Source of the DNA: an uncultured Candidatus Saccharibacteria bacterium
GTDB lineage: Bacteria > Patescibacteriota > Minisyncoccia > Phycocordibacterales > Phycocordibacteraceae
DNA length: 37,459 nt
NCBI GenBank assembly: GCA_964650475.1
Contig: CAZYRK010000005.1
Span: forward strand, 1-37,459
Direction: 5' to 3'
Every line of letters starts with the position of its first letter. Position 1 is the stretch's first letter. This document shows positions 5,681-34,938 of this stretch, piece by piece. The translations under genes and the position numbers were made by a program. The notes under the pieces were generated by a model. It had not been told where the DNA came from and ran no database searches. It worked only from the letters and a program-made list of their open reading frames with translations.

Positions 5681-6058
5681 CTATAAAGTAGGATATGTCG
5701 GTGCGGAGTATCCTCCGAGTCCGAAAAAGTTTGAAAGCAAAGCAACAAGTCCCCATACCGAGAAAATAATTGCGAAGCCGATGACTCCATACATAATAAA
5801 CTTAGTTCCCTCACTGCGTTTTTCCGGGTTTGCCCCACCAGAAATAAAATAAGTATAGATACCCCAGACAAATGTTATAAACGCAATTGATACAATAATC
5901 GGAAGCACTATATGATTTATCAAATAAACAAATTTCATTTCATATGAAGTCGCCATCGACAAATTAAGACCTATGGCGCGCGTAACAAACGGCGAGATAA
6001 CGCTTGCAAGAGTAGCTATCGGTACAAATAAGCGTATTGCGGAAAAAGGTGCTTTCAT
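5681..6058 (-). CDS. VirB2/TrbC-like (CPR-type) pilin-like membrane protein
   Basis: 125 aa; two TM helices linked by GG-NPEKR-EG, IMYGVIGFAIIFSVWGLV. Confidence 0.75.
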   Translation of the reverse strand: MKAPFSAIRLFVPIATLASVISPFVTRAIGLNLSMATSYEMKFVYLINHIVLPIIVSIAFITFVWGIYTYFISGGANPEKRSEGTKFIMYGVIGFAIIFSVWGLVALLSNFFGLGGYSAPTYPTL

Positions 6059-6070
6059 AAAGAAATATAA

Positions 6071-6568
6071 CTAATAAGATAACGGTATCTGTGGAGCCGT
6101 TTGCCCGGTAAGACCAAATGTTGAAGCCACAATATTTACCAACCCCCACAAACTCACCATAACAGCAAAACCGATTATTCCGTACAAAATAAGTTGCTTA
6201 CCCTTTTCTTGCCCTTCTGCGGAATCACCCTGCGCGATAAAATACTTGTAAATGCCCCACAAAAAAGTAATGAAAGATATGGCAAAAATTAACGGTATCA
6301 ATACACCGTTAATTATATAAAGAATAGTCTGACCTATGCCAACTACACCGCCACGATTTACCGAAAGCCCGTTATTAAAAAGATTTCCAAAAGATACACC
6401 CAAACCATAACTCACGTTTTTATCTCCACCAGTAGCCCCCAAAAGAAGCCCTACTTTTGCTTGTACAGGTGCTGTTGGAATAAAAAGAACGCCTACCAAC
6501 ACACTAAGTGCCACGTACTTCAAGAAGCTTTTTGTTTTTCGAACAATCATATTGTTTTTGTAATTCAT
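6071..6568 (-). CDS. VirB2/TrbC-like pilin-like membrane protein with signal peptide and Gly-rich N-terminal region
   Basis: Start moved to 6568 (ATGA overlap with upstream gene); FLWGIYKYFIAQGDSAEGQEKGKQLILYGIIGFAVMVSLWGLV. Confidence 0.75.
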   Translation of the reverse strand: MNYKNNMIVRKTKSFLKYVALSVLVGVLFIPTAPVQAKVGLLLGATGGDKNVSYGLGVSFGNLFNNGLSVNRGGVVGIGQTILYIINGVLIPLIFAISFITFLWGIYKYFIAQGDSAEGQEKGKQLILYGIIGFAVMVSLWGLVNIVASTFGLTGQTAPQIPLSY

Positions 6569-6810
6569 GAAATACCGAGAGTTACGAGCAGTAAACGCAC
6601 AAGACCCCAAACTGAGAATAATAATACCATGCCGAGTATGCCCCACAACATAAACGAGTGCGCTTCTTGGCGCTTTGTACTGTCGGTGCTGAAAAAGAAA
6701 TTTTTAACGACCCCTGTAATGAACACAAAAAAAGTGAGCGTTATTATAATTGGTATAACGATATAGCTAAATGCGTCGATTATTTCTTTTATGAAGTGTG
6801 CGAAGGTCAT
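6565..6810 (-). CDS. Short VirB2/TrbC-like pilin-like membrane protein (81 aa)
   Basis: Start moved to 6810 (ATGA overlap); FITGVVKNFF...KRQEAHSFMLWGILGMVLLFSVWGLV. Confidence 0.72.
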   Translation of the reverse strand: MTFAHFIKEIIDAFSYIVIPIIITLTFFVFITGVVKNFFFSTDSTKRQEAHSFMLWGILGMVLLFSVWGLVRLLLVTLGIS

Positions 6811-14436: not shown

Positions 14437-15036
14437 CTATTTCTTTGTATTTGCAAACTGCATTGCAGACTCGACACCTTCAACAGCAAAAAGATGTGCC
14501 GAGAGAACGGCTTTTTTTAGCGCTTTGTTTATAGCGAGTTTTTCTTTTGGAGAAAATTTTCCAATAACATGCTTAATCACCCGCTCTTCACCGGATGGTT
14601 TTTTTATTTTCCCTTTTGGTGTTGCGGGGGAAATTCCGATTTTTATCTGCGCAAAATCTTTCGTTTTTATTGCTCGCATAATACTCTCGATACCTTTATG
14701 CCCTCCGGACCCGTGCCCGAAAGTCATTTTAATTTTACCAATCGGCATATCCAAATCGTCACGCAATACAAGTAATTTTTCAGAAGCCTTTTTGGACTTA
14801 GCAAGTGTCATCACAGACTTTCCGGATAAGTTCATCATAGTTTCCGGAAGTGCCAGCACTGTTTTCGTCCCATCGATATCCCCTTTCGAAATAAGTGCTT
14901 GCGATTTTTTGTTTAATGTAAAGTTTTCAAACTGCTCTTTCTTTGCAAGAGCCTCGACAGCCATACGCCCCGCGTTGTGACGAGTTTTCGCATACTCTGC
15001 CCCAGGATTTCCAAGACCAACAATAACAGTATTCAT
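14437..15036 (-). CDS. pth: Peptidyl-tRNA hydrolase
   Basis: 199 aa; IVGLGNPG-EYAKTRHNAG, PETMMNLSG, DDLD, GSGGHKG. Confidence 0.96.
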   Translation of the reverse strand: MNTVIVGLGNPGAEYAKTRHNAGRMAVEALAKKEQFENFTLNKKSQALISKGDIDGTKTVLALPETMMNLSGKSVMTLAKSKKASEKLLVLRDDLDMPIGKIKMTFGHGSGGHKGIESIMRAIKTKDFAQIKIGISPATPKGKIKKPSGEERVIKHVIGKFSPKEKLAINKALKKAVLSAHLFAVEGVESAMQFANTKK

Positions 15037-15166: not shown

Positions 15167-15194
15167 TTGACGTGCGCGCAACAGGGCTTACAAT
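15167..15194 (+). promoter_or_regulatory. Sigma70-type promoter for lepB, near-leaderless
   Basis: TTGACG (15167-72), 16 nt, TACAAT (15189-94), 8 nt, then ATG at 15203. Confidence 0.55.
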
Positions 15195-15202
15195 ACACAT
15201 AA

Positions 15203-15790
15203 ATGCAGAACAACTCGAGCATAACGAGAGAGGTTATTAAGTTTATATTGTTGGTAGTTTTGGTTGTAATTCCAATTCGGCTATTCATTGCACAACCATT
15301 CATTGTAGACGGAGAATCGATGCATCCCACATTTGAAAACGGCAACTATCTTGTCGTAGACGAGCTTACATACGACTTCGAAAAACCTCGTCGTGGCGAT
15401 GTTATCGTTTTTCGATACCCTGGAGACCCTTCTATTTTTTATATAAAACGAATAATAGGGCTACCTGACGAAACAGTAACTATTAAAAACGGAAAGACTA
15501 CGATAACCGAGTCCAACGGCTCTTCACGAGTACTTAAAGAGCCCTACATTTCCGCTCTGGACGCAAGCTACAATACAAACGTAACCCTTACACCAAATCA
15601 ATACTTTGTTATGGGTGACAACCGCCCTAAGAGCTCTGATTCTCGCGTATGGGGTCCGCTTCCTTCAAAAAACATCATTGGTCGTGTCATTACACGACTA
15701 TATCCACCTTCCGTTCTTGGTATTTTCCCCGGTAAACATTATTTTGCACCTATTATTTCCACAAAATCAAATTCAACAACAACGCTATGA
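15203..15790 (+). CDS. lepB: Signal peptidase I
   Basis: 195 aa; GESMHPT (Ser), YIKRIIGLP (Lys), YFVMGDNR--SSDSR-WG. Confidence 0.96.
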   Translation: MQNNSSITREVIKFILLVVLVVIPIRLFIAQPFIVDGESMHPTFENGNYLVVDELTYDFEKPRRGDVIVFRYPGDPSIFYIKRIIGLPDETVTIKNGKTTITESNGSSRVLKEPYISALDASYNTNVTLTPNQYFVMGDNRPKSSDSRVWGPLPSKNIIGRVITRLYPPSVLGIFPGKHYFAPIISTKSNSTTTL

Positions 15791-16935
15791 GTCCTTTAAT
15801 TTCAATACTTCCTGAAGAGGTTTTACGTCGTGCATATTCCATTGGTAACTACTATGGGTTTTCTCCATTTCCAAATCTTGCACTTGAAGCACGAGAAAAG
15901 CGCCCGCCTCGAGCCCCATACCCAAAAGACTTCAATCTCTCCGAGTTAGATTCTCATGCACAGATAGTTGCCAGCTTCCTCAAAAAGATACGTGACGCGG
16001 GAATTACTCCGTCTGTACAACAACCATTATTTACATGGCATACAAATGTAACAGCAGGACGCCCAGCACCAAAAAAGATTATTGTTCAGTTCCACGCCCT
16101 AGGCTCCGCGCACGCCATAGCCGACGCCGTTATTATGCGTGCGGCACAAGCGTTTATTACAGACATCTTAAAAGCAAAGCCTACGCTCCATGTAAATAGT
16201 GTTGGGGATAAAGAAACTCGAGTACGCTACTCTCGCGAACTGAGCTCTTATTTTCGACAAAACGGTACGGATATTCCTGCAGACTGTATGTCTGATACAA
16301 AAACAGAGCTTTTTGAAACTCTTGAAAATATGCTGTCCAACCTTCCACAAAAACATATCCCTTCGTCTACAGATCACCTTTCCGAGTCCAGCAGAAAACA
16401 TTTTGAAAACGTATTGGAGTTTCTTGAAGAAGCTGATACTCCATACAAACTTGCTCCGGAGCTTGTTTCCAGAGCAGATGCATGGACAGACACACGTTTT
16501 GATATACGAGTAGACAACGAGTGCGTAGCGTGGGGCTCTCGATACCACGACATAACATCACATTTTTTCGAACAGCCAGTGCCGGGAATCGCAGTGATTA
16601 TACGTTTTGCCACACGAAGAGGCGTTGTTCCCACAGTACGTGCACCGGAAAAACCACGAGCAATGTTTCTTCACATTGGAGACGAAGCAAAAAAAACGTG
16701 TGTCAGAATGGTGGAAAGTTTACGAAAAGAACACATGCCGATTGTTCAAATGATAGGAGTCGAATCCTTGGTCGAGCAGATGCGCATCGCAGAAATACTA
16801 AAGCCTCCATACATTATATTGATGGGACGTAAAGAGGCTTTGGAAGGTACCGCTATTTTACGATCTCGCGCGACACATGTTGAAACCATTATCCCTCTTG
16901 ACGAATTGATTCAGAACTTAAAAACAGTTTTATAA
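15787..16935 (+). CDS. Degenerate histidyl-tRNA synthetase paralogue (class IIa fold plus anticodon-binding domain)
   Basis: 382 aa; remnants YYGF, LAPELVSRADAWTDTRFDI (cf. LVRGLDYYT--VFE), AWGSRY (cf. GGGRY); C-terminal LRKE-M...MRIAEILKPPYIILMGRKEALEG. Confidence 0.72.
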   Translation: MSPLISILPEEVLRRAYSIGNYYGFSPFPNLALEAREKRPPRAPYPKDFNLSELDSHAQIVASFLKKIRDAGITPSVQQPLFTWHTNVTAGRPAPKKIIVQFHALGSAHAIADAVIMRAAQAFITDILKAKPTLHVNSVGDKETRVRYSRELSSYFRQNGTDIPADCMSDTKTELFETLENMLSNLPQKHIPSSTDHLSESSRKHFENVLEFLEEADTPYKLAPELVSRADAWTDTRFDIRVDNECVAWGSRYHDITSHFFEQPVPGIAVIIRFATRRGVVPTVRAPEKPRAMFLHIGDEAKKTCVRMVESLRKEHMPIVQMIGVESLVEQMRIAEILKPPYIILMGRKEALEGTAILRSRATHVETIIPLDELIQNLKTVL

Positions 16936-17029: not shown

Positions 17030-17290
17030 ATGACTTGCGCAACACGAGTAGAAGTTCGTCGCGGAAAGAACGAGAGTTCTATCGCACTTATTCGACGTTT
17101 TTCACGCCGAGCAAAAGGAACGAACATTGTTCGCCATATGCGCATACGTCGCTATTACGCGCGCCTCAAATCAAATAACGTAAATCGCAAACGAGCACTC
17201 GTCGGAATTATGCGCCGTGAAAAATATCACGAGCTGGTGAAACTTGGCAAGATTGACCCTATGGCACGCAGAAATACACGTCGTCGATAA
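17030..17290 (+). CDS. rpsU: 30S ribosomal protein bS21 (CPR-like)
   Basis: 86 aa, very basic; VEVRRGKNES-IALIRRFSRR...RRYY. Confidence 0.8.
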   Translation: MTCATRVEVRRGKNESSIALIRRFSRRAKGTNIVRHMRIRRYYARLKSNNVNRKRALVGIMRREKYHELVKLGKIDPMARRNTRRR

Positions 17291-17318: not shown

Positions 17319-17720
17319 ATGGGTGGTCTTACAATACGAAACTTTACCCGGCGCAACGTGCCGGGTTCTCCATTTGAAAAAGCACTTTCTCTCATACTTC
17401 CCGACTGGGAAATCTCACTTGTTTTTGTAGGAGAAACTCGTGCAAAAAATCTAAATATTCGCCTGCGAAAAAAAACATACACACCGAACGTTCTTTCATA
17501 TGAACTCGGAAAAAACAGCGGTGAGATATTTATATGTCCAAAAATTGCTGTCAAAAACGCGAGTTCTTTCGGTCTTTCGTCCAGTAATTTCATACTACTT
17601 TTATTTATCCACGGTTTATTGCATTTGAAAGGATACCGACACGGCACTACAATGGAAGAACACGAACGAAAATTCCTTTCACGCATTGTTAGGAACAGCG
17701 CTTGTATACAAAAAAAATGA
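17319..17720 (+). CDS. ybeY: rRNA maturation endoribonuclease YbeY
   Basis: Start moved to 17319; LNIRLRKK-YTPNVLSY, GEIFIC, IHGLLHLKGYRH metal motif. Confidence 0.9.
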   Translation: MGGLTIRNFTRRNVPGSPFEKALSLILPDWEISLVFVGETRAKNLNIRLRKKTYTPNVLSYELGKNSGEIFICPKIAVKNASSFGLSSSNFILLLFIHGLLHLKGYRHGTTMEEHERKFLSRIVRNSACIQKK

Positions 17721-23939: not shown

Positions 23940-24116
23940 AATTTTTCGGGGATATCTTTTTTTAAACTTAACCTTACAAAAGTAACGATTATTAAATATA
24001 CTATTTTAAGTATACCAAACATGTCTATAATAAAAAACAATGGGGTCTATTGCAATACAACAGTTAGTAGGAACGAACTATACAATACTTAGCCCCCCCG
24101 AACAAACGCTACTCCC

Positions 24117-24650
24117 TTATTTTTCCATAAGAGAAATTAGTTTATTTAATTCTGTGATACTTTTTCTCCTTTCCTCAAATAACGCTTTTGGGAATGTCTT
24201 TTTATACTCATTTATATCTCTTCGTTTTTTCTTCTCGATATAATCTGATTCAAATTCTTTTTTACACCACGCCGAAGTTTTGTTTATAAACAACTCACCC
24301 TCACGTAAAACCGACAATAACAACGCTTCAAGACATGGCAAATTTTCTATTAACTCTATACTTCTTGATTTTGCTTCTTTACGCGCTCCTGTAATTTCTT
24401 GCTCACCCTTATCATTATCTACAACCACAATACGATTATCAAAACCACCGATTTCGTTCACTGCGCAAACAACAACATCTTTTGGTGTACCGCCTTTGCC
24501 ATTTCGAATAGTTACAGATATACCACTATTGCGATTATACAGCCCTCGCAAATACTTTAAAAACATTTCCTCGCCAAGACCTTCACCATATATAAGAAGA
24601 GTCTGTTTTGCAGCATGCCGTTTCTTTTTATAAGGATTCGTTCGCGACAT
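24117..24650 (-). CDS. RloB / AbiLii-like TOPRIM-related protein
   Basis: 177 aa; LIYGEG-GE--FLKYL, VVVDND, LPCLEALLL; directly downstream of an AAA_21 ATPase. Confidence 0.75.
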   Translation of the reverse strand: MSRTNPYKKKRHAAKQTLLIYGEGLGEEMFLKYLRGLYNRNSGISVTIRNGKGGTPKDVVVCAVNEIGGFDNRIVVVDNDKGEQEITGARKEAKSRSIELIENLPCLEALLLSVLREGELFINKTSAWCKKEFESDYIEKKKRRDINEYKKTFPKALFEERRKSITELNKLISLMEK

Positions 24651-24662
24651 GATAGCGTAATC

Positions 24663-25874
24663 TTATTGAAGTTTTGGCACGGCACCATATGCACCAGCAA
24701 TGTATTTAGTGTAATAATTTTCGTCTGATCGCACGCCAGAAACATCATCAAGTCGCCAAGCTTCACTAACGCCACTCTTATTTTTCTCTACAAGCACAAC
24801 TTGGTATTTATCCAGTTTGTTCAAAATTACATGGCTGTGTGTACTGAAAAATAACTGAGCATCGTGAGGATTTGTTTCCGGCTGCACAAACAAATCAAAA
24901 AGTGCCATTACCATTTCCGGATGCAGGTTTACATCAAACTCGTCAACAACCGCTATACTTCCATACATCAATGCCGTCAAAATACTTTTCAAAAGTACGA
25001 ACAACTGCTTTGTCCCCGACGATTCATAATTTAAACTTAGAGGATATTTTTCGCCGTCTATAGTATGAACAGCATGAGCATGCAAGTTTACCCCGTTTTC
25101 TGTCGCTTTTTTTATAATTTCAAATTCAGACAAACCAAGATCAAAACGAGAAAGTAATTTTTCAGCTTCTTCTTTAAGCACCTTGTTTTCGCTGTAAAAA
25201 TTAAGTGCTTCAAATAACTGCTGTGTGGCATTTGGCAAAAGCTGTCCACCAACCCAACCGGCTTCTATCACGTTTGTTTCCAACCGTTGCCATGCTGTAG
25301 CGATATCGCGACTTTCTTTATGTTCCAATCGCGCCGCTGTACTAATAACACTTGCATTTGTGCGAAGTAGATTTTCAAAATCTTTTGGCAAGCCAAAACT
25401 ATCTCCGGAAAATTCATACTGTTTTTTATCTTTATTCCATGTGCGAGAAAATACTTTCTTGCTTGATTTCTTTTCTTTAATGAACTCTGTTAACCTTAAT
25501 TCCTCTGATAAAATTTTGTATTGTGTAAGTTTAAAACTATAGGTATATACTTTGCCATCCACCTCAAAAACAACCGAAAGCTCTATAGCTTTTTTTTTGT
25601 TTTTGCCGAATGCAAAATTCTTCACAGGCAATTGCGCGCCTGGGTCAGACTTAAAAGAATCGGTAATAAGCCACTTTAAAAAAGGTAAAATCTTTAGAAG
25701 ATTTGTTTTTCCGGATGCGTTTGAACCAATTACCGTGATTACTTTTGAAAGACGCGTACCTGATTTAGACTCAAAATAGCCATTATTTTTAGGAGCGTTA
25801 TCATTAACAACAAAGTCAACGGTCGTTTCATCACCAAACGAATAGAAATTCTTGCAAGTAAATGAATGTATCAT
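24663..25874 (-). CDS. RloA / AbiLi-like ABC-type (AAA_21) ATPase
   Basis: 403 aa; FTCKNFYSF, Walker A GSNASGKTN, signature ESSGTKQ, Walker B VVDEFD--LHP, FSTHS, Y-AGAYGAVP. Confidence 0.85.
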   Translation of the reverse strand: MIHSFTCKNFYSFGDETTVDFVVNDNAPKNNGYFESKSGTRLSKVITVIGSNASGKTNLLKILPFLKWLITDSFKSDPGAQLPVKNFAFGKNKKKAIELSVVFEVDGKVYTYSFKLTQYKILSEELRLTEFIKEKKSSKKVFSRTWNKDKKQYEFSGDSFGLPKDFENLLRTNASVISTAARLEHKESRDIATAWQRLETNVIEAGWVGGQLLPNATQQLFEALNFYSENKVLKEEAEKLLSRFDLGLSEFEIIKKATENGVNLHAHAVHTIDGEKYPLSLNYESSGTKQLFVLLKSILTALMYGSIAVVDEFDVNLHPEMVMALFDLFVQPETNPHDAQLFFSTHSHVILNKLDKYQVVLVEKNKSGVSEAWRLDDVSGVRSDENYYTKYIAGAYGAVPKLQ

Positions 25875-26204
25875 GATTTTGTGATTAAAATGATAATTTT
25901 CTTATCATTGCAAACATAACAAATAAATACCTGTTTTGCAAGCATTTCCACGAGATTTTGTGGAAACTTGAGAAAAGTATCCTGTTTTAGGCACTTTTAT
26001 TAAAAACCCTCAGTAGTTTTTCAAACCAAAAAAACGACTTCCCTGTTCCTTGCACGCCCTAATTAAGGTACATAACTAACTCTACCGCACCACGGCCCTA
26101 CTTTCCTACTTTCACTTAAATGAAAACCAAAGCTACATGTTCTCGCTTTTTTGTCATCGCCAAATTTCATGTCTGTAAAAAACCGCACGCTCCCCAAGCA
26201 GGCG

Positions 26205-26861
26205 TTATAACTTAAACTTTTTAAGTAACTCAACCTCGTGGCCTGAAAATGGCTGGCAAAATATTTGTTGATTACCAAAAGTCAAAATCTTTTCTCCGGT
26301 GTTATTAAAATGATTTGCCACACCGCTACCGAGCAAAAAGATAGAATCCTCCTCGGTCGCTACAGCAAAAACAATTTTAAGATTGATAAAATCTTTAATC
26401 CATTTATCTAAATATCCTCTATCTATTCTACTTGTTGAATAGATTGTATAAATGTTGTCTCGCTCCTTAAGTTTCTCAAATGCGCTTTCAATGCCTTTGC
26501 GGTTTTTGTAAACCATATCGCATTCCTCAATATGGATAAAAATTTTCTTATCTGTTTTTAAATCACTTATTTCGTGGAGAACATTTATCGCCTCCTCGGG
26601 TTCACTAATAACCGGTTTTATTAAATAATCAGATGACCAGTTATAGAAATCTGTTTTTGTCATATCAAGAAAAACGAAACCAATTTCGTCTGGTGAATAT
26701 TTCTCGACTAATTCTTTATAGAAATTAAGGTGAAATATACTTTTACCTGAAGCGGTTTGACCAGCCAATAACACGAAATTTATTTTTTCTTTATCAAAAT
26801 CTATCTCGATTTTTCTCCCATTTTTATCATTCCCTAAATATATTTTTTTCATACTTTTCAA
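26205..26861 (-). CDS. Stand-alone FtsK/SpoIIIE-like P-loop ATPase domain
   Basis: 218 aa; IYLG-DKNG, VLLAGQTASGKS Walker A, FVFLD; Walker B position reads IFIHIEE. Confidence 0.75.
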   Translation of the reverse strand: MKSMKKIYLGNDKNGRKIEIDFDKEKINFVLLAGQTASGKSIFHLNFYKELVEKYSPDEIGFVFLDMTKTDFYNWSSDYLIKPVISEPEEAINVLHEISDLKTDKKIFIHIEECDMVYKNRKGIESAFEKLKERDNIYTIYSTSRIDRGYLDKWIKDFINLKIVFAVATEEDSIFLLGSGVANHFNNTGEKILTFGNQQIFCQPFSGHEVELLKKFKL

Positions 26862-26952: not shown

Positions 26953-26992
26953 GCATAGTCCCGAAACAGCATGCCTTTTGCTCCTTGTTTTG

Positions 26993-27079
26993 CGGAGAGG
27001 GAGGGATTCGAACCCTCGATACAGTTGCCCGTATGCCGGTTTTCGAAACCGGTGCCTTCGACCACTCAGCCACCTCTCC
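26993..27079 (-). tRNA. tRNA-Ser(CGA), long variable arm, CCA not encoded
   Basis: GGAGAGGTGGCTGAGTGGTCGAAGGCA-CCGGT-TTCGAAA-ACCGG-...-GAGGGTTCGAATCCCTC-CCTCTCC-G. Confidence 0.97.
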
Positions 27080-29639: not shown

Positions 29640-30509
29640 ATGCCAAAACCACGCACAATAATTTTGTATCACGGCGGATGCCCCGATGGTTTCGGAGGAG
29701 CTTATTCCGCATGGAAAAAGTTTGGAGACGATGCCGAGTACATTCCTCTGTACCGCTCGCACCCTGTTCCAGAGGGGTTAGACGGATGCAATCTTTATTT
29801 TATCGATTTCTGCTACCCGAAAGAAATAATGGAAACTTTTAGAAAGACCGCGCAGTCTGTCATCGTACTCGACCACCACGAAGGAGCCAGCGAAACAGCC
29901 CTGTCTTTCGAGGGGGTATTCGACCAAAACCATTCCGGAGCTGTTATTGCTTGGAACTATTTTCACAAAGAAAAGCCCGTACCTAAACTACTCTCGTATA
30001 TAGAGGACGGAGATCTTTACCGCTTCGCGCTTCCCCACTCCCGAGAAATACTTTCTTCCATATATAGCGAGCCTTGGGAATCTTTTGAATACTTCGATTC
30101 TACAATCGAAAAAATGAAAGACCCTTCCAAGCTTGAGCAGATGGCAACAATCGGGGCGCACTATATAAAGTATCGCCAAAGTATAATAAACTCTCACGTT
30201 AAAAAAGCCGAGTTGGTACTTTTTGAAGGCTACGAGTGCTATCTCGCAAGCTCCACAGGAGAGTTTACAAGCGATGTGGGGCATGCGCTCGCAGAGAAAA
30301 AACCGCCGATTGCGCTTATAGTAAGCGCAGACGCTTTAGGTTTAAGAATATCTCTTCGAAGCGATAGTAGCGTAGATGTTTCAAAGCTTGCGCAAATATA
30401 CGGAGGAAACGGTCACCCCGCTGCCTCAGGTATCCGAATCCCGTTCGGGGCACCTATCCCATGGAAAATTATTCCGAAAGATGAAAAAGATGAAGTTACT
30501 GGCGATTGA
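29640..30509 (+). CDS. DHH/DHHA1-family phosphoesterase
   Basis: 289 aa; YHGGCPDG, FIDF, LDHH, SGAVIAW, D-DL, SLRS, GGNGHPAASG. Confidence 0.85.
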   Translation: MPKPRTIILYHGGCPDGFGGAYSAWKKFGDDAEYIPLYRSHPVPEGLDGCNLYFIDFCYPKEIMETFRKTAQSVIVLDHHEGASETALSFEGVFDQNHSGAVIAWNYFHKEKPVPKLLSYIEDGDLYRFALPHSREILSSIYSEPWESFEYFDSTIEKMKDPSKLEQMATIGAHYIKYRQSIINSHVKKAELVLFEGYECYLASSTGEFTSDVGHALAEKKPPIALIVSADALGLRISLRSDSSVDVSKLAQIYGGNGHPAASGIRIPFGAPIPWKIIPKDEKDEVTGD

Positions 30510-31776
30510 AACCTCGTGCGATGAAACCGCAATAGCTATAGTGGAAGCTGTCGGGGACGAAACTTCTGCCACCTTTCAAATACAAGGAGACGCCTTACTT
30601 TCGCAAATAGAATTGCATCGACCATACGGAGGTGTTTTCCCAAACCTCGCAAAGCGTGAACATGCAAAAAATATAATTCCACTCACCCGCGCAGCGCTTG
30701 AAGAGTCTGGTCTGCTACACCAAAATGCAAACGCCGTATCTACTGAAAAGAGAAACCGCATCGCTTCTCTTTTTACACACGACCAAGATCTTGCTGAGCA
30801 ATTTTTCGATTTTGTAACAGAAGTCGAACCGCCAGAAATAGATGCTATCGCCGTTACGGCATGTCCGGGGCTTGAACCGGCGTTGTGGGTTGGTGTAAAC
30901 ACCGCAAAAGCTTTTTCCATTTTTTGGGACAAACCTCTCGTAGCCGTTAATCATATGGAGGGGCACATACTTTCCGCACTGGCAAAAACCAAAAACAATG
31001 GCTCCACCGAAACACCGATGCTTGAGATTTCAAATGTCGAGCTACCTGTTCTCGCGCTTCTTATTTCCGGTGGTCATACCGAGCTTACAGTAATGCGCAA
31101 ATGGCTTTCATATGAACTTATCGGAGAAACGCGCGACGATGCCGTCGGCGAAGCCTTCGACAAAGTCGCGCGTTTGCTCGGACTTCCATACCCTGGAGGA
31201 CCAGAAATATCAAAACTCGCGGAAGATGTTCGTGCATCCACGGAGGAAAAAGAGGCTGGTGACTTACCTGCAAAAACTTCGGATAAGCAAGACCGCCGAG
31301 AACAGGAAAAAGATGCTTTCATGTGCAAACTTCCCCGCCCGATGATACAAGACCAATCATGCGACTTCTCATTCGCTGGGCTCAAAACTGCCACAAGATA
31401 TTTAATACAAGACCTTGGCGAAATAAACGACTCTACAAAATCGCAAATTGCACTCGAGTTTGAAAATGCCGTAACAGATGTCCTTCTTTCAAAAACACTG
31501 CGCGCACTTAAAGAAACCGGAGCAAAAACACTCGTGCTTGGTGGAGGAGTTTCCGCAAACAAACATATCCGCGAGGTTTTCACAAAAGAAATCGCGCACG
31601 CACATCCGGAAGTGTCTCTTAAAATACCTCAAGCATCTTTAACAACCGACAACGCCATTATGATTGCGCTCGCCGGTTTCTATCGTGCTTCGCGCCACGA
31701 ATACGCAGATACAGAATCTCTCACACCGAGCGGTTCGAAGTCTCTTGCTAAAAAACCGACTAACACCGCCAGCTAA
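30490..31776 (+). CDS. tsaD: tRNA threonylcarbamoyladenosine transferase TsaD, with lineage-specific insertions
   Basis: Start moved to 30490 (MKLLAIETSCDET); HMEGH, LLISGGHT, DDAVGEAFDKVAR, YPGGP, FSFAGLKT, GGVSAN, TDNAIMIA. Confidence 0.95.
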   Translation: MKLLAIETSCDETAIAIVEAVGDETSATFQIQGDALLSQIELHRPYGGVFPNLAKREHAKNIIPLTRAALEESGLLHQNANAVSTEKRNRIASLFTHDQDLAEQFFDFVTEVEPPEIDAIAVTACPGLEPALWVGVNTAKAFSIFWDKPLVAVNHMEGHILSALAKTKNNGSTETPMLEISNVELPVLALLISGGHTELTVMRKWLSYELIGETRDDAVGEAFDKVARLLGLPYPGGPEISKLAEDVRASTEEKEAGDLPAKTSDKQDRREQEKDAFMCKLPRPMIQDQSCDFSFAGLKTATRYLIQDLGEINDSTKSQIALEFENAVTDVLLSKTLRALKETGAKTLVLGGGVSANKHIREVFTKEIAHAHPEVSLKIPQASLTTDNAIMIALAGFYRASRHEYADTESLTPSGSKSLAKKPTNTAS

Positions 31777-32739: not shown

Positions 32740-34938
32740 ATGGACGACGCCTTTCGAAAACCATATAAATCTGTCGATACTGAGCCTAAAATATATGAGC
32801 TGTGGGAAAAGAGCGGTATGTTTAACCCCGACAATTTACCGGACGCAAAAAACCGCGAACCTTTTTCAATAGTGCTTCCACCGCCAAACGTGACCGGTCG
32901 CCTGCATATGGGTCATGCACTTATCCTTTCTCTGGAAGACATAATCATTCGTTTCAAACGCATGCGCGGGTACCGAACACTCTGGCTCCCCGGCACCGAC
33001 CACGCGGCAATCGCAACGCAGTCTGTCGTCGAGAAGAGAATTCAAAAAGAAGAAAAGCTAAATCGCCACGACCTTGGGCGCGATGAGCTACTAAAACGTA
33101 TAGAAAAATTCGCAAACGAAAGTCACGACACCATCATCTCTCAGATAAAAACAATGGGAGCATCTGTCGACTGGTCACGTGAAGTTTTCACTCTCGACCA
33201 AACACGTAGTTTGGCGGTGCGCACCATGTTTAAAAAAATGTACGATGCCGGTCTTATTTACAGAAGCAACCGTATTGTAAACTGGGATCCAAAAGGACAA
33301 ACAACAATCTCTGATGACGAAATTGTTTATAAAGAACGCTCCACCACTCTTTATACTTTCCGATACAGCAAAGACTTCCCTATCCCCGTAGCGACCACGC
33401 GCCCCGAAACCAAAGTGGGCGATGTCGCTGTTGCTGTGCACCCAGACGATACCCGCTACAAAGACTTTATCGGAAAAGAATACAATCTTACTTTTTGCGA
33501 TGTACCAATTCATATTAAAGTCGTTGCAGATTATGCTGTCGACATGGAATTTGGCACCGGAGCGGTGGGTGTTACACCTGCGCATAGCCAAACAGACTGG
33601 GATATTGCAGAGCGCCACAATTTACCGCGAAAACAAATCATAAATGAATACGCAAAAATGACCGTATCGGGTCGTCTTGAAAACAAAAAAGTAGCAGAGG
33701 CGCGCGAAATGGTAGTAGCATGGCTTCGCGAAGAAAACTTGCTCGAAGAAGAACAAGAAATGACACACAACGTCTCTACCGCAGAGCGCACAGGAGGAAC
33801 AATCGAACCGCTACCAAAACTACAATGGTTTATCGACGTAAACAAACAGTTCACAATCCCTAACTCAAAAATTTCAGGTATCGAATCCGGAAGCGAAACG
33901 ACACTGAAAGAAATGACACGTAAAGCCGTAGAGAGTGGTGACATAAAAATTCTTCCGGAACATTTTGTAAAAACGTATTTCCACTGGATTGATAACCTGC
34001 GCCCGTGGTGCATAAGCCGTCAGATATGGTACGGGCACCGTATCCCCGTATGGTATCGCGGTGAAGAAATATATGTTGGTATTGAAGAACCTTCCGAAGA
34101 CGGCTGGAAACAAGACCCCGACACCCTCGACACATGGTTCTCTTCCGGTCTATGGACATTTTCCACCATGGGTTGGCCTGAGGCATGGGATATGGAAAAA
34201 GGAGTGGCAAAAGAAGGCAGTGACCTCGCCGTTTGGCGTCCTACAGATATTCTCGAAACAGGACACGATATTTTATTTTTCTGGGTTGCACGCATGGTGC
34301 TTATGACAGGCTTCGCGCTTGGCGAAATTCCTTTCAAAACAGTGTATCTAAACGGTCTTGTGCGCGATGCCAAAGGTCGAAAAATGTCGAAATCTCTCGG
34401 AAACAATCTCGATCCGCTAGACGTAACCGAAAAATTCGGTACCGACGCAACACGTATGGCACTTGTGGTTGGCAACGCACCTGGCATGGACACGCGTATA
34501 AGCGAGGAGAAAATTAAAGGCTACAAACATTTTGCAAACAAGCTGTGGAATATCTCACGTTTTATTTTGGAACGTACCGATGAAATAGACCTAGCGGAAA
34601 AGCTCTCCGAGACTGATGCCAAGATTTATGGCGAGCTTTCAAAAATTGTTCGCGAAGTTTCAGAAGACATAGATGCATACCGCATACACATAGCCGCAGA
34701 AAAACTTTATCACTTTACATGGCACAGACTTGCCGATGAAATACTCGAGGAATCGAAACCGATACTTTTGGATGGTGATGAAGTCGCGCGCGCTTCGCGC
34801 GCGCGACTTCTGCGCGACACCCTAGACACTATCCTAAAACTCCTACACCCTTTTATGCCTTTTATAACCGAAGAAATATGGCAACGTATCCCCAACCAAT
34901 CTGAAAAAATGCTTATGACCGCCACGTGGCCGAGTTAA
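32740..34938 (+). CDS. valS: Valine--tRNA ligase lacking the C-terminal coiled-coil arm
   Basis: 732 aa; PPPNVTG-LHMGH, GTDHAAIATQ, ATTRPET, WCISRQIWYGHRIP, DTWFSS, KMSKSLGN; ends at TATWPS. Confidence 0.97.
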   Translation: MDDAFRKPYKSVDTEPKIYELWEKSGMFNPDNLPDAKNREPFSIVLPPPNVTGRLHMGHALILSLEDIIIRFKRMRGYRTLWLPGTDHAAIATQSVVEKRIQKEEKLNRHDLGRDELLKRIEKFANESHDTIISQIKTMGASVDWSREVFTLDQTRSLAVRTMFKKMYDAGLIYRSNRIVNWDPKGQTTISDDEIVYKERSTTLYTFRYSKDFPIPVATTRPETKVGDVAVAVHPDDTRYKDFIGKEYNLTFCDVPIHIKVVADYAVDMEFGTGAVGVTPAHSQTDWDIAERHNLPRKQIINEYAKMTVSGRLENKKVAEAREMVVAWLREENLLEEEQEMTHNVSTAERTGGTIEPLPKLQWFIDVNKQFTIPNSKISGIESGSETTLKEMTRKAVESGDIKILPEHFVKTYFHWIDNLRPWCISRQIWYGHRIPVWYRGEEIYVGIEEPSEDGWKQDPDTLDTWFSSGLWTFSTMGWPEAWDMEKGVAKEGSDLAVWRPTDILETGHDILFFWVARMVLMTGFALGEIPFKTVYLNGLVRDAKGRKMSKSLGNNLDPLDVTEKFGTDATRMALVVGNAPGMDTRISEEKIKGYKHFANKLWNISRFILERTDEIDLAEKLSETDAKIYGELSKIVREVSEDIDAYRIHIAAEKLYHFTWHRLADEILEESKPILLDGDEVARASRARLLRDTLDTILKLLHPFMPFITEEIWQRIPNQSEKMLMTATWPS

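Follow-up and report, generated by a model that had tools for sequence, protein, structure and literature searches.

We analyzed a 37,459-nucleotide stretch of contig CAZYRK010000005.1 (assembly GCA_964650475.1), referred to here as the window, which carries a degenerate relative of the histidyl-tRNA synthetase (HisRS) gene hisS. Its product, a protein of 382 amino acids that we call pseudo-HisRS, keeps the architecture and the anticodon-binding domain of HisRS but has lost the catalytic motifs. The ATG start codon of the gene overlaps the TGA stop codon of the signal peptidase I gene lepB in the tetranucleotide ATGA, as read directly from the sequence. On its 3' side lie rpsU and ybeY, both placed by Pfam matches and in agreement with a preliminary description of this DNA, followed in the window by ftsA and ftsZ. 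The coordinates of these genes and of the elements within pseudo-HisRS are collected in Table 1.

Table 1. Features of the pseudo-HisRS gene and its neighborhood; coordinates refer to the window.
Feature	Position	Strand	Basis or remark
Degenerate hisS orthologue (pseudo-HisRS), 382 amino acids	15787..16935	+	Open reading frame list, fold, TIGR00442 score, hisS slot, dN/dS 0.02-0.13
Degenerate motif 2 hairpin, residues 84-106 (WHTNVTAGRPAPKKIIVQFHALG)	16036..16104	+	Aligns to E. coli F112-G129 with a 4-residue insertion
HisRS insertion domain, residues ~141-225	16207..16461	+	AlphaFold2 helices 142-162, 175-185, 200-215
HisA remnant LVSRADAW, residues 226-233	16462..16485	+	Aligns to E. coli LVRGLDYY
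HisB remnant AWGSRY, residues 248-253	16528..16545	+	G250, R252 = E. coli G285, R287
Motif 3 position PGIAVIIRF, residues 266-274	16582..16608	+	G.G.ER signature gone
Class IIa anticodon-binding domain, residues ~290-382	16654..16932	+	PF03129, E 2.6e-7
Anticodon-reader codons E350; R359; E366	16834-16836; 16861-16863; 16882-16884	+	Invariant in clade
lepB (signal peptidase I)	15203..15790	+	PF10502, E 2.6e-45
pth (peptidyl-tRNA hydrolase), divergent from lepB	14437..15036	-	PF01195, E 1.5e-51
rpsU (S21-like), first gene 3' of pseudo-HisRS	17030..17290	+	Weak Pfam match, E 0.018
ybeY	17319..17720	+	PF02130, E 8e-19; start as in public gene call (locus L006, offset 9115)
Promoter-like site TTGACG-16-TACAAT	15167..15194	+	Consensus scan only; ends 8 nucleotides before lepB ATG

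The relationship of pseudo-HisRS to HisRS was assessed by sequence and structure comparison. A phmmer search against PDB sequences returned the HisRS of S. aureus with an E-value of 1.2e-13, and the family profile reached the same enzyme at 2e-55. An AlphaFold2 model built on 121 sequences gave a pLDDT (predicted local distance difference test) value of 92 and a pTM (predicted template modeling) score of 0.90. When this model was compared with the PDB using Foldseek, the 44 best matches were all HisRS structures, each with a probability of 1.0, and match 45 was the HisRS-like domain of GCN2 (8t7t_A, E 9e-13). Homology to HisRS is secure and far above chance. As modeled, the protein combines a class II core, the HisRS insertion domain and a class IIa anticodon-binding domain. 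The sole Pfam match is to the anticodon-binding family PF03129 (residues 297-379, E 2.6e-7), and the NCBIfam hisS equivalog model TIGR00442 gives 87.4 bits, below its cut-off of 286.75. Of five testable features that define a HisRS, pseudo-HisRS shows the class II fold with its insertion and anticodon domains; the other four (the motif 2 Arg and Glu, the motif 3 Arg, the HisRS-specific histidine pocket and a score at the equivalog cut-off) are lacking.

Residue correspondences were taken from an alignment to E. coli HisRS. The strings quoted in the preliminary description, namely WHTNVTAGRPAPKKIIVQF (residues 84-102), LVSRADAW (226-233) and WGSRY (249-253), were all found. In motif 2, R113 and E115 of the E. 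coli enzyme are replaced by H85 and N87, the RPEGT histidine loop reads SHAQIV, and E131 is lost. In HisA, the catalytic R259 corresponds to S228 and the tyrosine pair Y263/Y264 to A232/W233. Motif 3 has no G.G.ER signature, with A269, R273, A275 and T276 standing for G304, G308, E310 and R311, respectively. Twelve catalytic or histidine-binding positions were checked, and the window protein keeps none of them. As judged from this alignment, every residue that class II synthetases or HisRS need for binding of ATP and histidine and for catalysis is gone; the arginines of motifs 2 and 3 are generally considered universal in class II synthetases.

Other parts of the core are kept, namely G91-R92 (E. 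coli G120-R121), Q101-F102-H103 (Q124-F125-H126), the segment NSVGD (NSIGS) and G250-x-R252-Y253 of HisB, the last being all that remains of the HisRS-specific histidine pocket. We take the E. coli counterparts of R92 and F102, R121 and F125, to contact the ATP gamma-phosphate and to stack on the adenine, respectively, in the structures of that enzyme. The 121-sequence alignment of the window's own clade has 62 invariant columns, which include W84, H85, N87, G91, R92, P95 and Q101 of the motif 2 hairpin. The same region is variable in the larger group of degenerate proteins, and G250 and R252 of HisB are invariant over the whole degenerate family. The clade pattern W-H-x-N...G-R-P-x-P-K...Q-F-H suggests that a ligand or partner may still dock in the old active site.

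In the complex of T. thermophilus HisRS with tRNA-His, E386-E388 read G34, K397 reads G36 and Q404 reads U35, and E388A and K397Q are the most damaging of the anticodon-side mutants (PMC4357726). E350, R359 and E366 of pseudo-HisRS align to E388, K397 and Q404, respectively, and the first two are invariant both in a broad alignment and in that of the clade. Position 366 is an invariant glutamate in the window's clade; about 95% of the broad set has glutamine there, as do the canonical Parcubacterial HisRS. T. thermophilus HisRS contacts G-1 and the acceptor end through R7 of the N-terminal KGMRD segment, the GG dipeptide and the motif 2 residues E114, R115 and R122 (PMC4357726), and pseudo-HisRS has lost all of these elements. 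The insertion domain, which in an active HisRS clamps the acceptor stem, has been preserved along with conserved basic residues. Its basic helices and the segment DHLSExSRKHFExVLE are the best-conserved part of the whole family, E143, T144, R145, R147, R150, E151, P192, L198, S199, E200, S202, R203, H205 and E207 being invariant in the clade alignment, and the motif HFxEVLEYLE is common to the insertion domains of the pseudo-HisRS family and of canonical Parcubacterial HisRS. From the conserved residues we infer that tRNA-His, or an RNA with a GUG anticodon-like loop, is still bound through the C-terminal domain. On all three structural points, a traceable HisRS architecture, eroded catalytic motifs and an intact C-terminal anticodon-binding domain, the preliminary description is borne out.

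That description had called the gene a paralogue of hisS coupled to lepB. When metagenomes were scanned with the larger degenerate subgroup as seed, 80 loci were obtained. In about 20 of them the protein at the corresponding position, or slot, aligns with E. coli HisRS along its whole length at 33-37% identity, with 227-276 bits as against 70-112 bits for the degenerate ones. These canonical slot proteins carry KGMRD, LRPEGT, FRHDxPQRGRxRQF, LVRGLDYY, GGGRYD and GxxIGxDR, and their TIGR00442 scores of 402-415 bits lie above the equivalog cut-off. Their genes are located 3' of pth and lepB and, where the contig extends, 5' of rpsU-ybeY-ftsA-ftsZ. The order in related Parcubacteria, which are ultra-small bacteria, is gyrA..S1..pth, then lepB-hisS-(rpsU)-ybeY-ftsA-ftsZ-trxB; one Lloydbacteria contig (gyrA, a Lactamase_B_3 gene, S1, pth, lepB, hisS, ybeY, ftsA, ftsZ, trxB) repeats the extended order of the window with a real hisS in place of the degenerate gene. 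A Nomurabacteria genome has pth, then lepB-hisS-def-fmt. Likewise, def and fmt follow the canonical hisS in loci L131, L138, L153, L165, L171, L173 and L174, where an opposite-strand gene for a ribosome hibernation factor comes next. Since def-fmt stands there in place of rpsU-ybeY-ftsA, at least one rearrangement has affected the right side of the slot. The conserved left edge is pth, which was found in 78 of the 82 loci of the window's clade and also beside canonical slots.

The motifs EVAxYYGF, INSIGDKE, HFKEVLEYLE, YFIQLGxEAKLKSL and GQKEA...VIVR...RSQ are common to the degenerate family and canonical Parcubacterial HisRS, and the latter are 39-43% identical to the degenerate protein P0219. 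The flanking genes of lineages with a canonical and with a degenerate slot are about equally close to those of the window (gyrA 60 vs. 63%, lepB 52 vs. 52%, ftsA 40.5 vs. 41% identity). Because a motif-complete hisS of related Parcubacteria fills the same slot, the window gene is the positional orthologue of hisS rather than an extra copy that came to lie beside lepB, and the label of paralogue is unsupported. The coupling to lepB is borne out in part: the ATGA overlap is real and occurs in 66 of the 82 clade loci, compared with 3 of 53 loci of the other degenerate group and 0 of 14 canonical loci, but a special coupling is not upheld, since lepB also precedes the canonical hisS. The adjacency to lepB is ancestral and was inherited from hisS, and only the 4-nucleotide overlap is specific to the clade.

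The slot proteins fall into two sharply separated classes. Among 154 complete ones, 18 combine all three catalytic arginines (R113, R259 and R311) with the full set of other key residues, 125 lack all three arginines, and 12 have one or two arginines at the aligned positions, inside loops rich in lysine and arginine. In a neighbor-joining tree rooted on E. coli HisRS, the degenerate proteins form one clade (137 of 137) nested in a canonical grade, with a root-to-tip distance about 1.8 times that of the canonical proteins, and the window's clade (82 of 82) sits on a long stem inside it. Among degenerate forms, the Q-F-H and G-R residues of motif 2 are kept only in the window's clade.

Degenerate forms are widespread. 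Searching 5.8 billion proteins produced 963 matches; the best 120 have 371-394 amino acids, are 49-95% identical and stem from metagenome-assembled genomes of Parcubacteria, Paceibacteria and Kaiserbacteria. When 1.84 billion cluster representatives were searched without filters, there were 1682 matches, 692 of them below 1e-10. All of the best 150 of these 1682 representatives of 50%-identity clusters lack the canonical motif 2, R259 and R311; they are 26-54% identical to the query in the stretches that match, and most have 370-430 amino acids, some being fragments. A collection of species-representative genomes, one per species, added 291 matches from the window's own clade. Large contigs with the degenerate gene, from near-complete genomes, include LFCN01000006.1 (686 kb, Parcubacteria C7867-004), DASPLI010000001.1 (743 kb), CAWKPH010000001.1 (688 kb), JAZKIU010000001.1 (640 kb) and a 795 kb JGI contig with P0120. 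The gene lepB lies directly upstream in all 82 clade loci, with rpsU, ybeY, ftsA and ftsZ following where the contig allows, and the same arrangement surrounds members only 26-28% identical to the window protein. Sampled family members match PF03129 alone or together with a weak match to PF13393, and no domain fusions were found among 10 atypical members. Neither Pfam nor NCBIfam holds a model specific to the family. PGAP names its members [quoted passage not shown] or hypothetical, while JGI and some submitters call them histidyl-tRNA synthetase. Full-text literature searches returned no description of such a bacterial HisRS-like protein, nor of HisRS anomalies in bacteria of the Candidate Phyla Radiation (CPR, Patescibacteria).

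All sampled copies are intact, with 137 full-length open reading frames, and the degenerate forms are under strong purifying selection. The ratio of nonsynonymous to synonymous substitution rates (dN/dS) by the Nei-Gojobori method (NG86) was 0.02-0.05 in pairs 89-97% identical (dS about 1), and its median over 84 pairs was 0.13; two canonical pairs gave 0.08-0.11. Over longer distances the gene is nevertheless the fastest-evolving of its neighborhood, with a median identity in the clade of 49.5% vs. 56-75% for its neighbors. This rate pattern fits a burst of change once the enzymatic constraint was lost, with selection thereafter stable for a residual or new role.

Upstream of the lepB and pseudo-HisRS unit, the promoter-like site TTGACG-16-TACAAT is a possible promoter; the number of such sites found by the consensus scan is not above that in shuffled sequence. 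A consensus match only, this good sigma-70-like site leaves no space for a Shine-Dalgarno sequence within 15167-15203 and would imply a leaderless or near-leaderless transcript of lepB and pseudo-HisRS. An RNA operator in the form of an anticodon-like stem-loop between pseudo-HisRS and rpsU, by analogy with ThrRS autoregulation, was rejected, as the 116-nucleotide region folds no better than shuffled versions (z = +0.93). The S21-like protein encoded at 17030-17290 is highly divergent, with a Pfam score of 15 bits where the cut-off is 27. Its identity to the syntenic counterparts of other Parcubacterial groups is only 36-38%, the lowest among the flanking genes after pseudo-HisRS. In related loci, the syntenic gene matches PF01165. 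The longest open reading frame of ybeY begins at 17244, not at 17319. As to expression, a search of sequencing runs found the sequence of the locus in DNA runs only. Two of these, X1 and X4 (about 160-200 million letters), contain 92-98% of the words sampled from the locus, and given so high a share in very small runs the organism must be abundant in the corresponding samples.

The remainder of the 37 kb window encodes MreB, MurA, gyrA, type IV secretion pilins, a TsaD homologue, LeuRS and five tRNAs, and has the gene content of a CPR bacterium. A tRNA-His gene, which would show G-1 and position 73, was found neither in the window nor in any fetched locus. Two neighboring small proteins at 5681-6646 (-) match the type IV secretion system pilin family PF18895, and the pair is kept in related contigs. 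At 24117-25874 (-), an RloB-like gene (177 amino acids) adjoins an AAA_21/AAA_15 ATPase gene (403 amino acids). The GC content around this pair (24001-26000) is the lowest in the window, 0.36 vs. about 0.44, and an FtsK/SpoIIIE fragment (26205-26861) and a tRNA-Ser gene (26992-27079) are adjacent; the stretch looks like a small mobile or defense island inserted at a tRNA gene. LeuRS (32740-34938, +) has only 732 amino acids, and its editing-domain family PF13603 matches residues 262-307 alone, so the CP1 editing domain may be reduced. The TsaD-family protein at 30376-31776 (+; 466 amino acids) is matched by the TsaD profile in two stretches, and its open reading frame overlaps an upstream DHHA1-containing one (29640-30509, +) by about 130 nucleotides, which may reflect a fusion, an insertion or a mis-set start.

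Taken together, these results make it moderately probable that the gene descends, in conserved synteny, from the Parcubacterial hisS and that it has lost aminoacylation chemistry but has been kept as a non-catalytic, tRNA-His-binding pseudo-synthetase. An active HisRS would have been gained elsewhere in the genome, probably by duplication or transfer, before the copy in the slot decayed and lost histidine activation and tRNA charging. Histidine is still in use, as pseudo-HisRS itself has invariant histidine residues; therefore an active HisRS should be encoded elsewhere. The protein is probably dimeric, since the "YYGF" region of motif 1 is kept. Its C-terminal domain would recognize the GUG anticodon arm of tRNA-His or of a mimic RNA, and the bound tRNA-His might be sequestered, chaperoned, handed over to another enzyme or sensed. 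In the window's clade, a partner or ligand may dock in the remodeled motif 2 hairpin. Sensing of uncharged tRNA in the manner of GCN2 is possible by analogy.

Several observations weigh against this interpretation. The presumed tRNA binding is deduced from an intact domain and from the conservation of three residues, one of which, E366, stands in place of the glutamine that reads U35. The monophyly of the degenerate forms in the neighbor-joining tree may be due to long-branch attraction. The window protein is 28.9% identical to canonical forms and 28.7% to the other degenerate group, and because it is equally similar to both, it is possible that decay happened more than once, in two independent events. 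Furthermore, a tblastn search with five queries, the HisRS of E. coli and four canonical ones of Parcubacteria, revealed no second HisRS in the 37 kb window or within 10 kb on either side of the slot in the fetched loci (173 sequences, one region per genome); all of these represent the same syntenic region, so that the negative result says little either way. No contig was common to the matches of the degenerate family and the best 120 of more than 8000 canonical Parcubacterial HisRS. Among plasmid and phage records, none was a deposited CPR genome and only ordinary hisS matches were seen. A scan of viral contigs with the canonical profile gave 5 unrelated HisRS loci. The HisRS genes of these loci (L176-L180), whose contigs IMG/VR classes as viral, show 25-43% identity to Parcubacterial HisRS. 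Four of the five lie at a contig end, and they may represent host flanks of proviruses or virus-encoded synthetases.

There is a modest chance that the conserved, non-catalytic protein instead has a job independent of tRNA, for example as a scaffold or regulator whose old active site accommodates a protein partner or a small ligand. The best-conserved segments lie in the insertion domain and in the helix before HisA rather than in the C-terminal domain alone, the invariant motif 2 hairpin of the clade points to a specific ligand, and HisZ and POLG2 are precedents for a synthetase fold that works without tRNA. Such a role would leave unexplained why the invariant residues of the C-terminal domain are exactly those that contact the anticodon, and the sampled members show no conserved new neighbor or domain fusion that would hint at a protein partner.

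We see only a small chance that the slot gene is still the sole, working HisRS, with H85, N87, R92, R229 and R273 replacing the lost arginines. The gene occupies the hisS slot, is under selection as strong as that on canonical copies and keeps the anticodon readers; the motif 2 hairpin is invariant in the clade and retains R92, F102 and H103; R229 is one position away from the lost R259, and R273 three away from the lost R311; none of the fetched sequences contained another HisRS; and the JGI annotation reads histidyl-tRNA synthetase. Nevertheless, the arginines of motifs 2 and 3 are gone, and with them E115, the RPEGT loop, E131, the HisA tyrosines and the G-1-holding KGMRD and GG elements (PMC4357726). 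The motif 2 loop is unconserved in the larger degenerate group, the degenerate proteins exceed canonical copies about 1.8-fold in distance from the root, and the gene is the least conserved of its neighborhood. A variant in which the degenerate gene is the only HisRS homologue and the clade has no competent HisRS has a slim chance; such episymbionts would depend for His-tRNA-His or for the activity on their host, on an unrelated enzyme or on a catalytic partner acting in trans, with pseudo-HisRS as its tRNA-binding subunit. Either form of a sole homologue, by a chemistry as yet unknown or in a clade without the enzyme, is unlikely on biochemical grounds.

A regulatory subunit of ATP phosphoribosyltransferase of the HisZ type, which is likewise an inactive HisRS-like protein, is highly improbable. 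No HisZ model (TIGR00443, NF0089xx) matches pseudo-HisRS even at E<=10, whereas canonical Parcubacterial HisRS do match TIGR00443 with 144-155 bits, and pseudo-HisRS carries the anticodon-binding domain that HisZ lacks, both of which agree with the distinction from HisZ drawn in the preliminary description. A Pfam scan of the larger open reading frames of the window and of nine related neighborhoods with listed genes found no HisG family, and CPR bacteria are generally known to lack histidine biosynthesis. Finally, a decaying, functionless hisS relic would account for the lost catalytic residues and the accelerated early divergence, but it is ruled out by the selection analysis, given 137 full-length intact open reading frames with dN/dS of 0.02-0.13, 62 invariant columns over 121 sequences and a confidently predicted fold.

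If the slot gene is indeed such a tRNA-binding pseudo-synthetase, these genomes hold an unnoticed replacement HisRS or have none, the latter of which would be remarkable. Automatic annotation is misleading, and names such as "histidyl-tRNA synthetase" would affect completeness estimates based on marker genes as well as metabolic reconstructions of these lineages. The family also offers a natural, testable case for learning how a bacterium uses a synthetase body that is specific for a tRNA yet non-catalytic.

Among known systems, the canonical Parcubacterial HisRS (Nomurabacteria GW2011_GWE1_32_28, Lloydbacteria) occupies the same slot (pth, then lepB-hisS-...ybeY-ftsA-ftsZ), has the same three-domain fold and shares YYGF, INSxGD, HFxEVLEYLE, GxEAK, GxKEA...R...Q and the anticodon-reading residues. 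Pseudo-HisRS differs from it by the absence of the residues for ATP, histidine, G-1 and the acceptor end; at 29% identity, it is about 40-50 residues shorter and has no N-terminal KGMRD segment. HisZ is also derived from HisRS and has no aminoacylation activity, a property that in pseudo-HisRS is predicted from the sequence; however, HisZ has no anticodon-binding domain and partners HisG in histidine biosynthesis. POLG2, the accessory subunit of mitochondrial DNA polymerase gamma, is a dimer that resembles class IIa synthetases, carries an anticodon-binding-like domain and does not act as a synthetase, but its kin are of the GlyRS/ProRS type, and it is eukaryotic, binds the DNA polymerase and DNA, and has no link to tRNA-His. 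In its mode of working, pseudo-HisRS would be most like the HisRS-like domain of GCN2 (PDB 8t7t), a degenerate HisRS body with degenerate motifs and a retained anticodon-binding-like part that binds uncharged tRNA. The GCN2 domain is one part of a multidomain eukaryotic kinase, whereas pseudo-HisRS is a stand-alone bacterial protein of 382 amino acids that arose in situ from the housekeeping gene and is structurally closer to bacterial HisRS, and it therefore does not belong to the GCN2 family; no kinase or other extra domain was found in it or in the sampled family members. While synthetase-derived pseudo-enzymes such as HisZ, GCN2 and POLG2 are already known, what would be unusual here is the conversion of the housekeeping hisS itself, in its ancestral place in the operon and over a large radiation of uncultivated bacteria, into a protein that keeps the anticodon reader and discards the chemistry.

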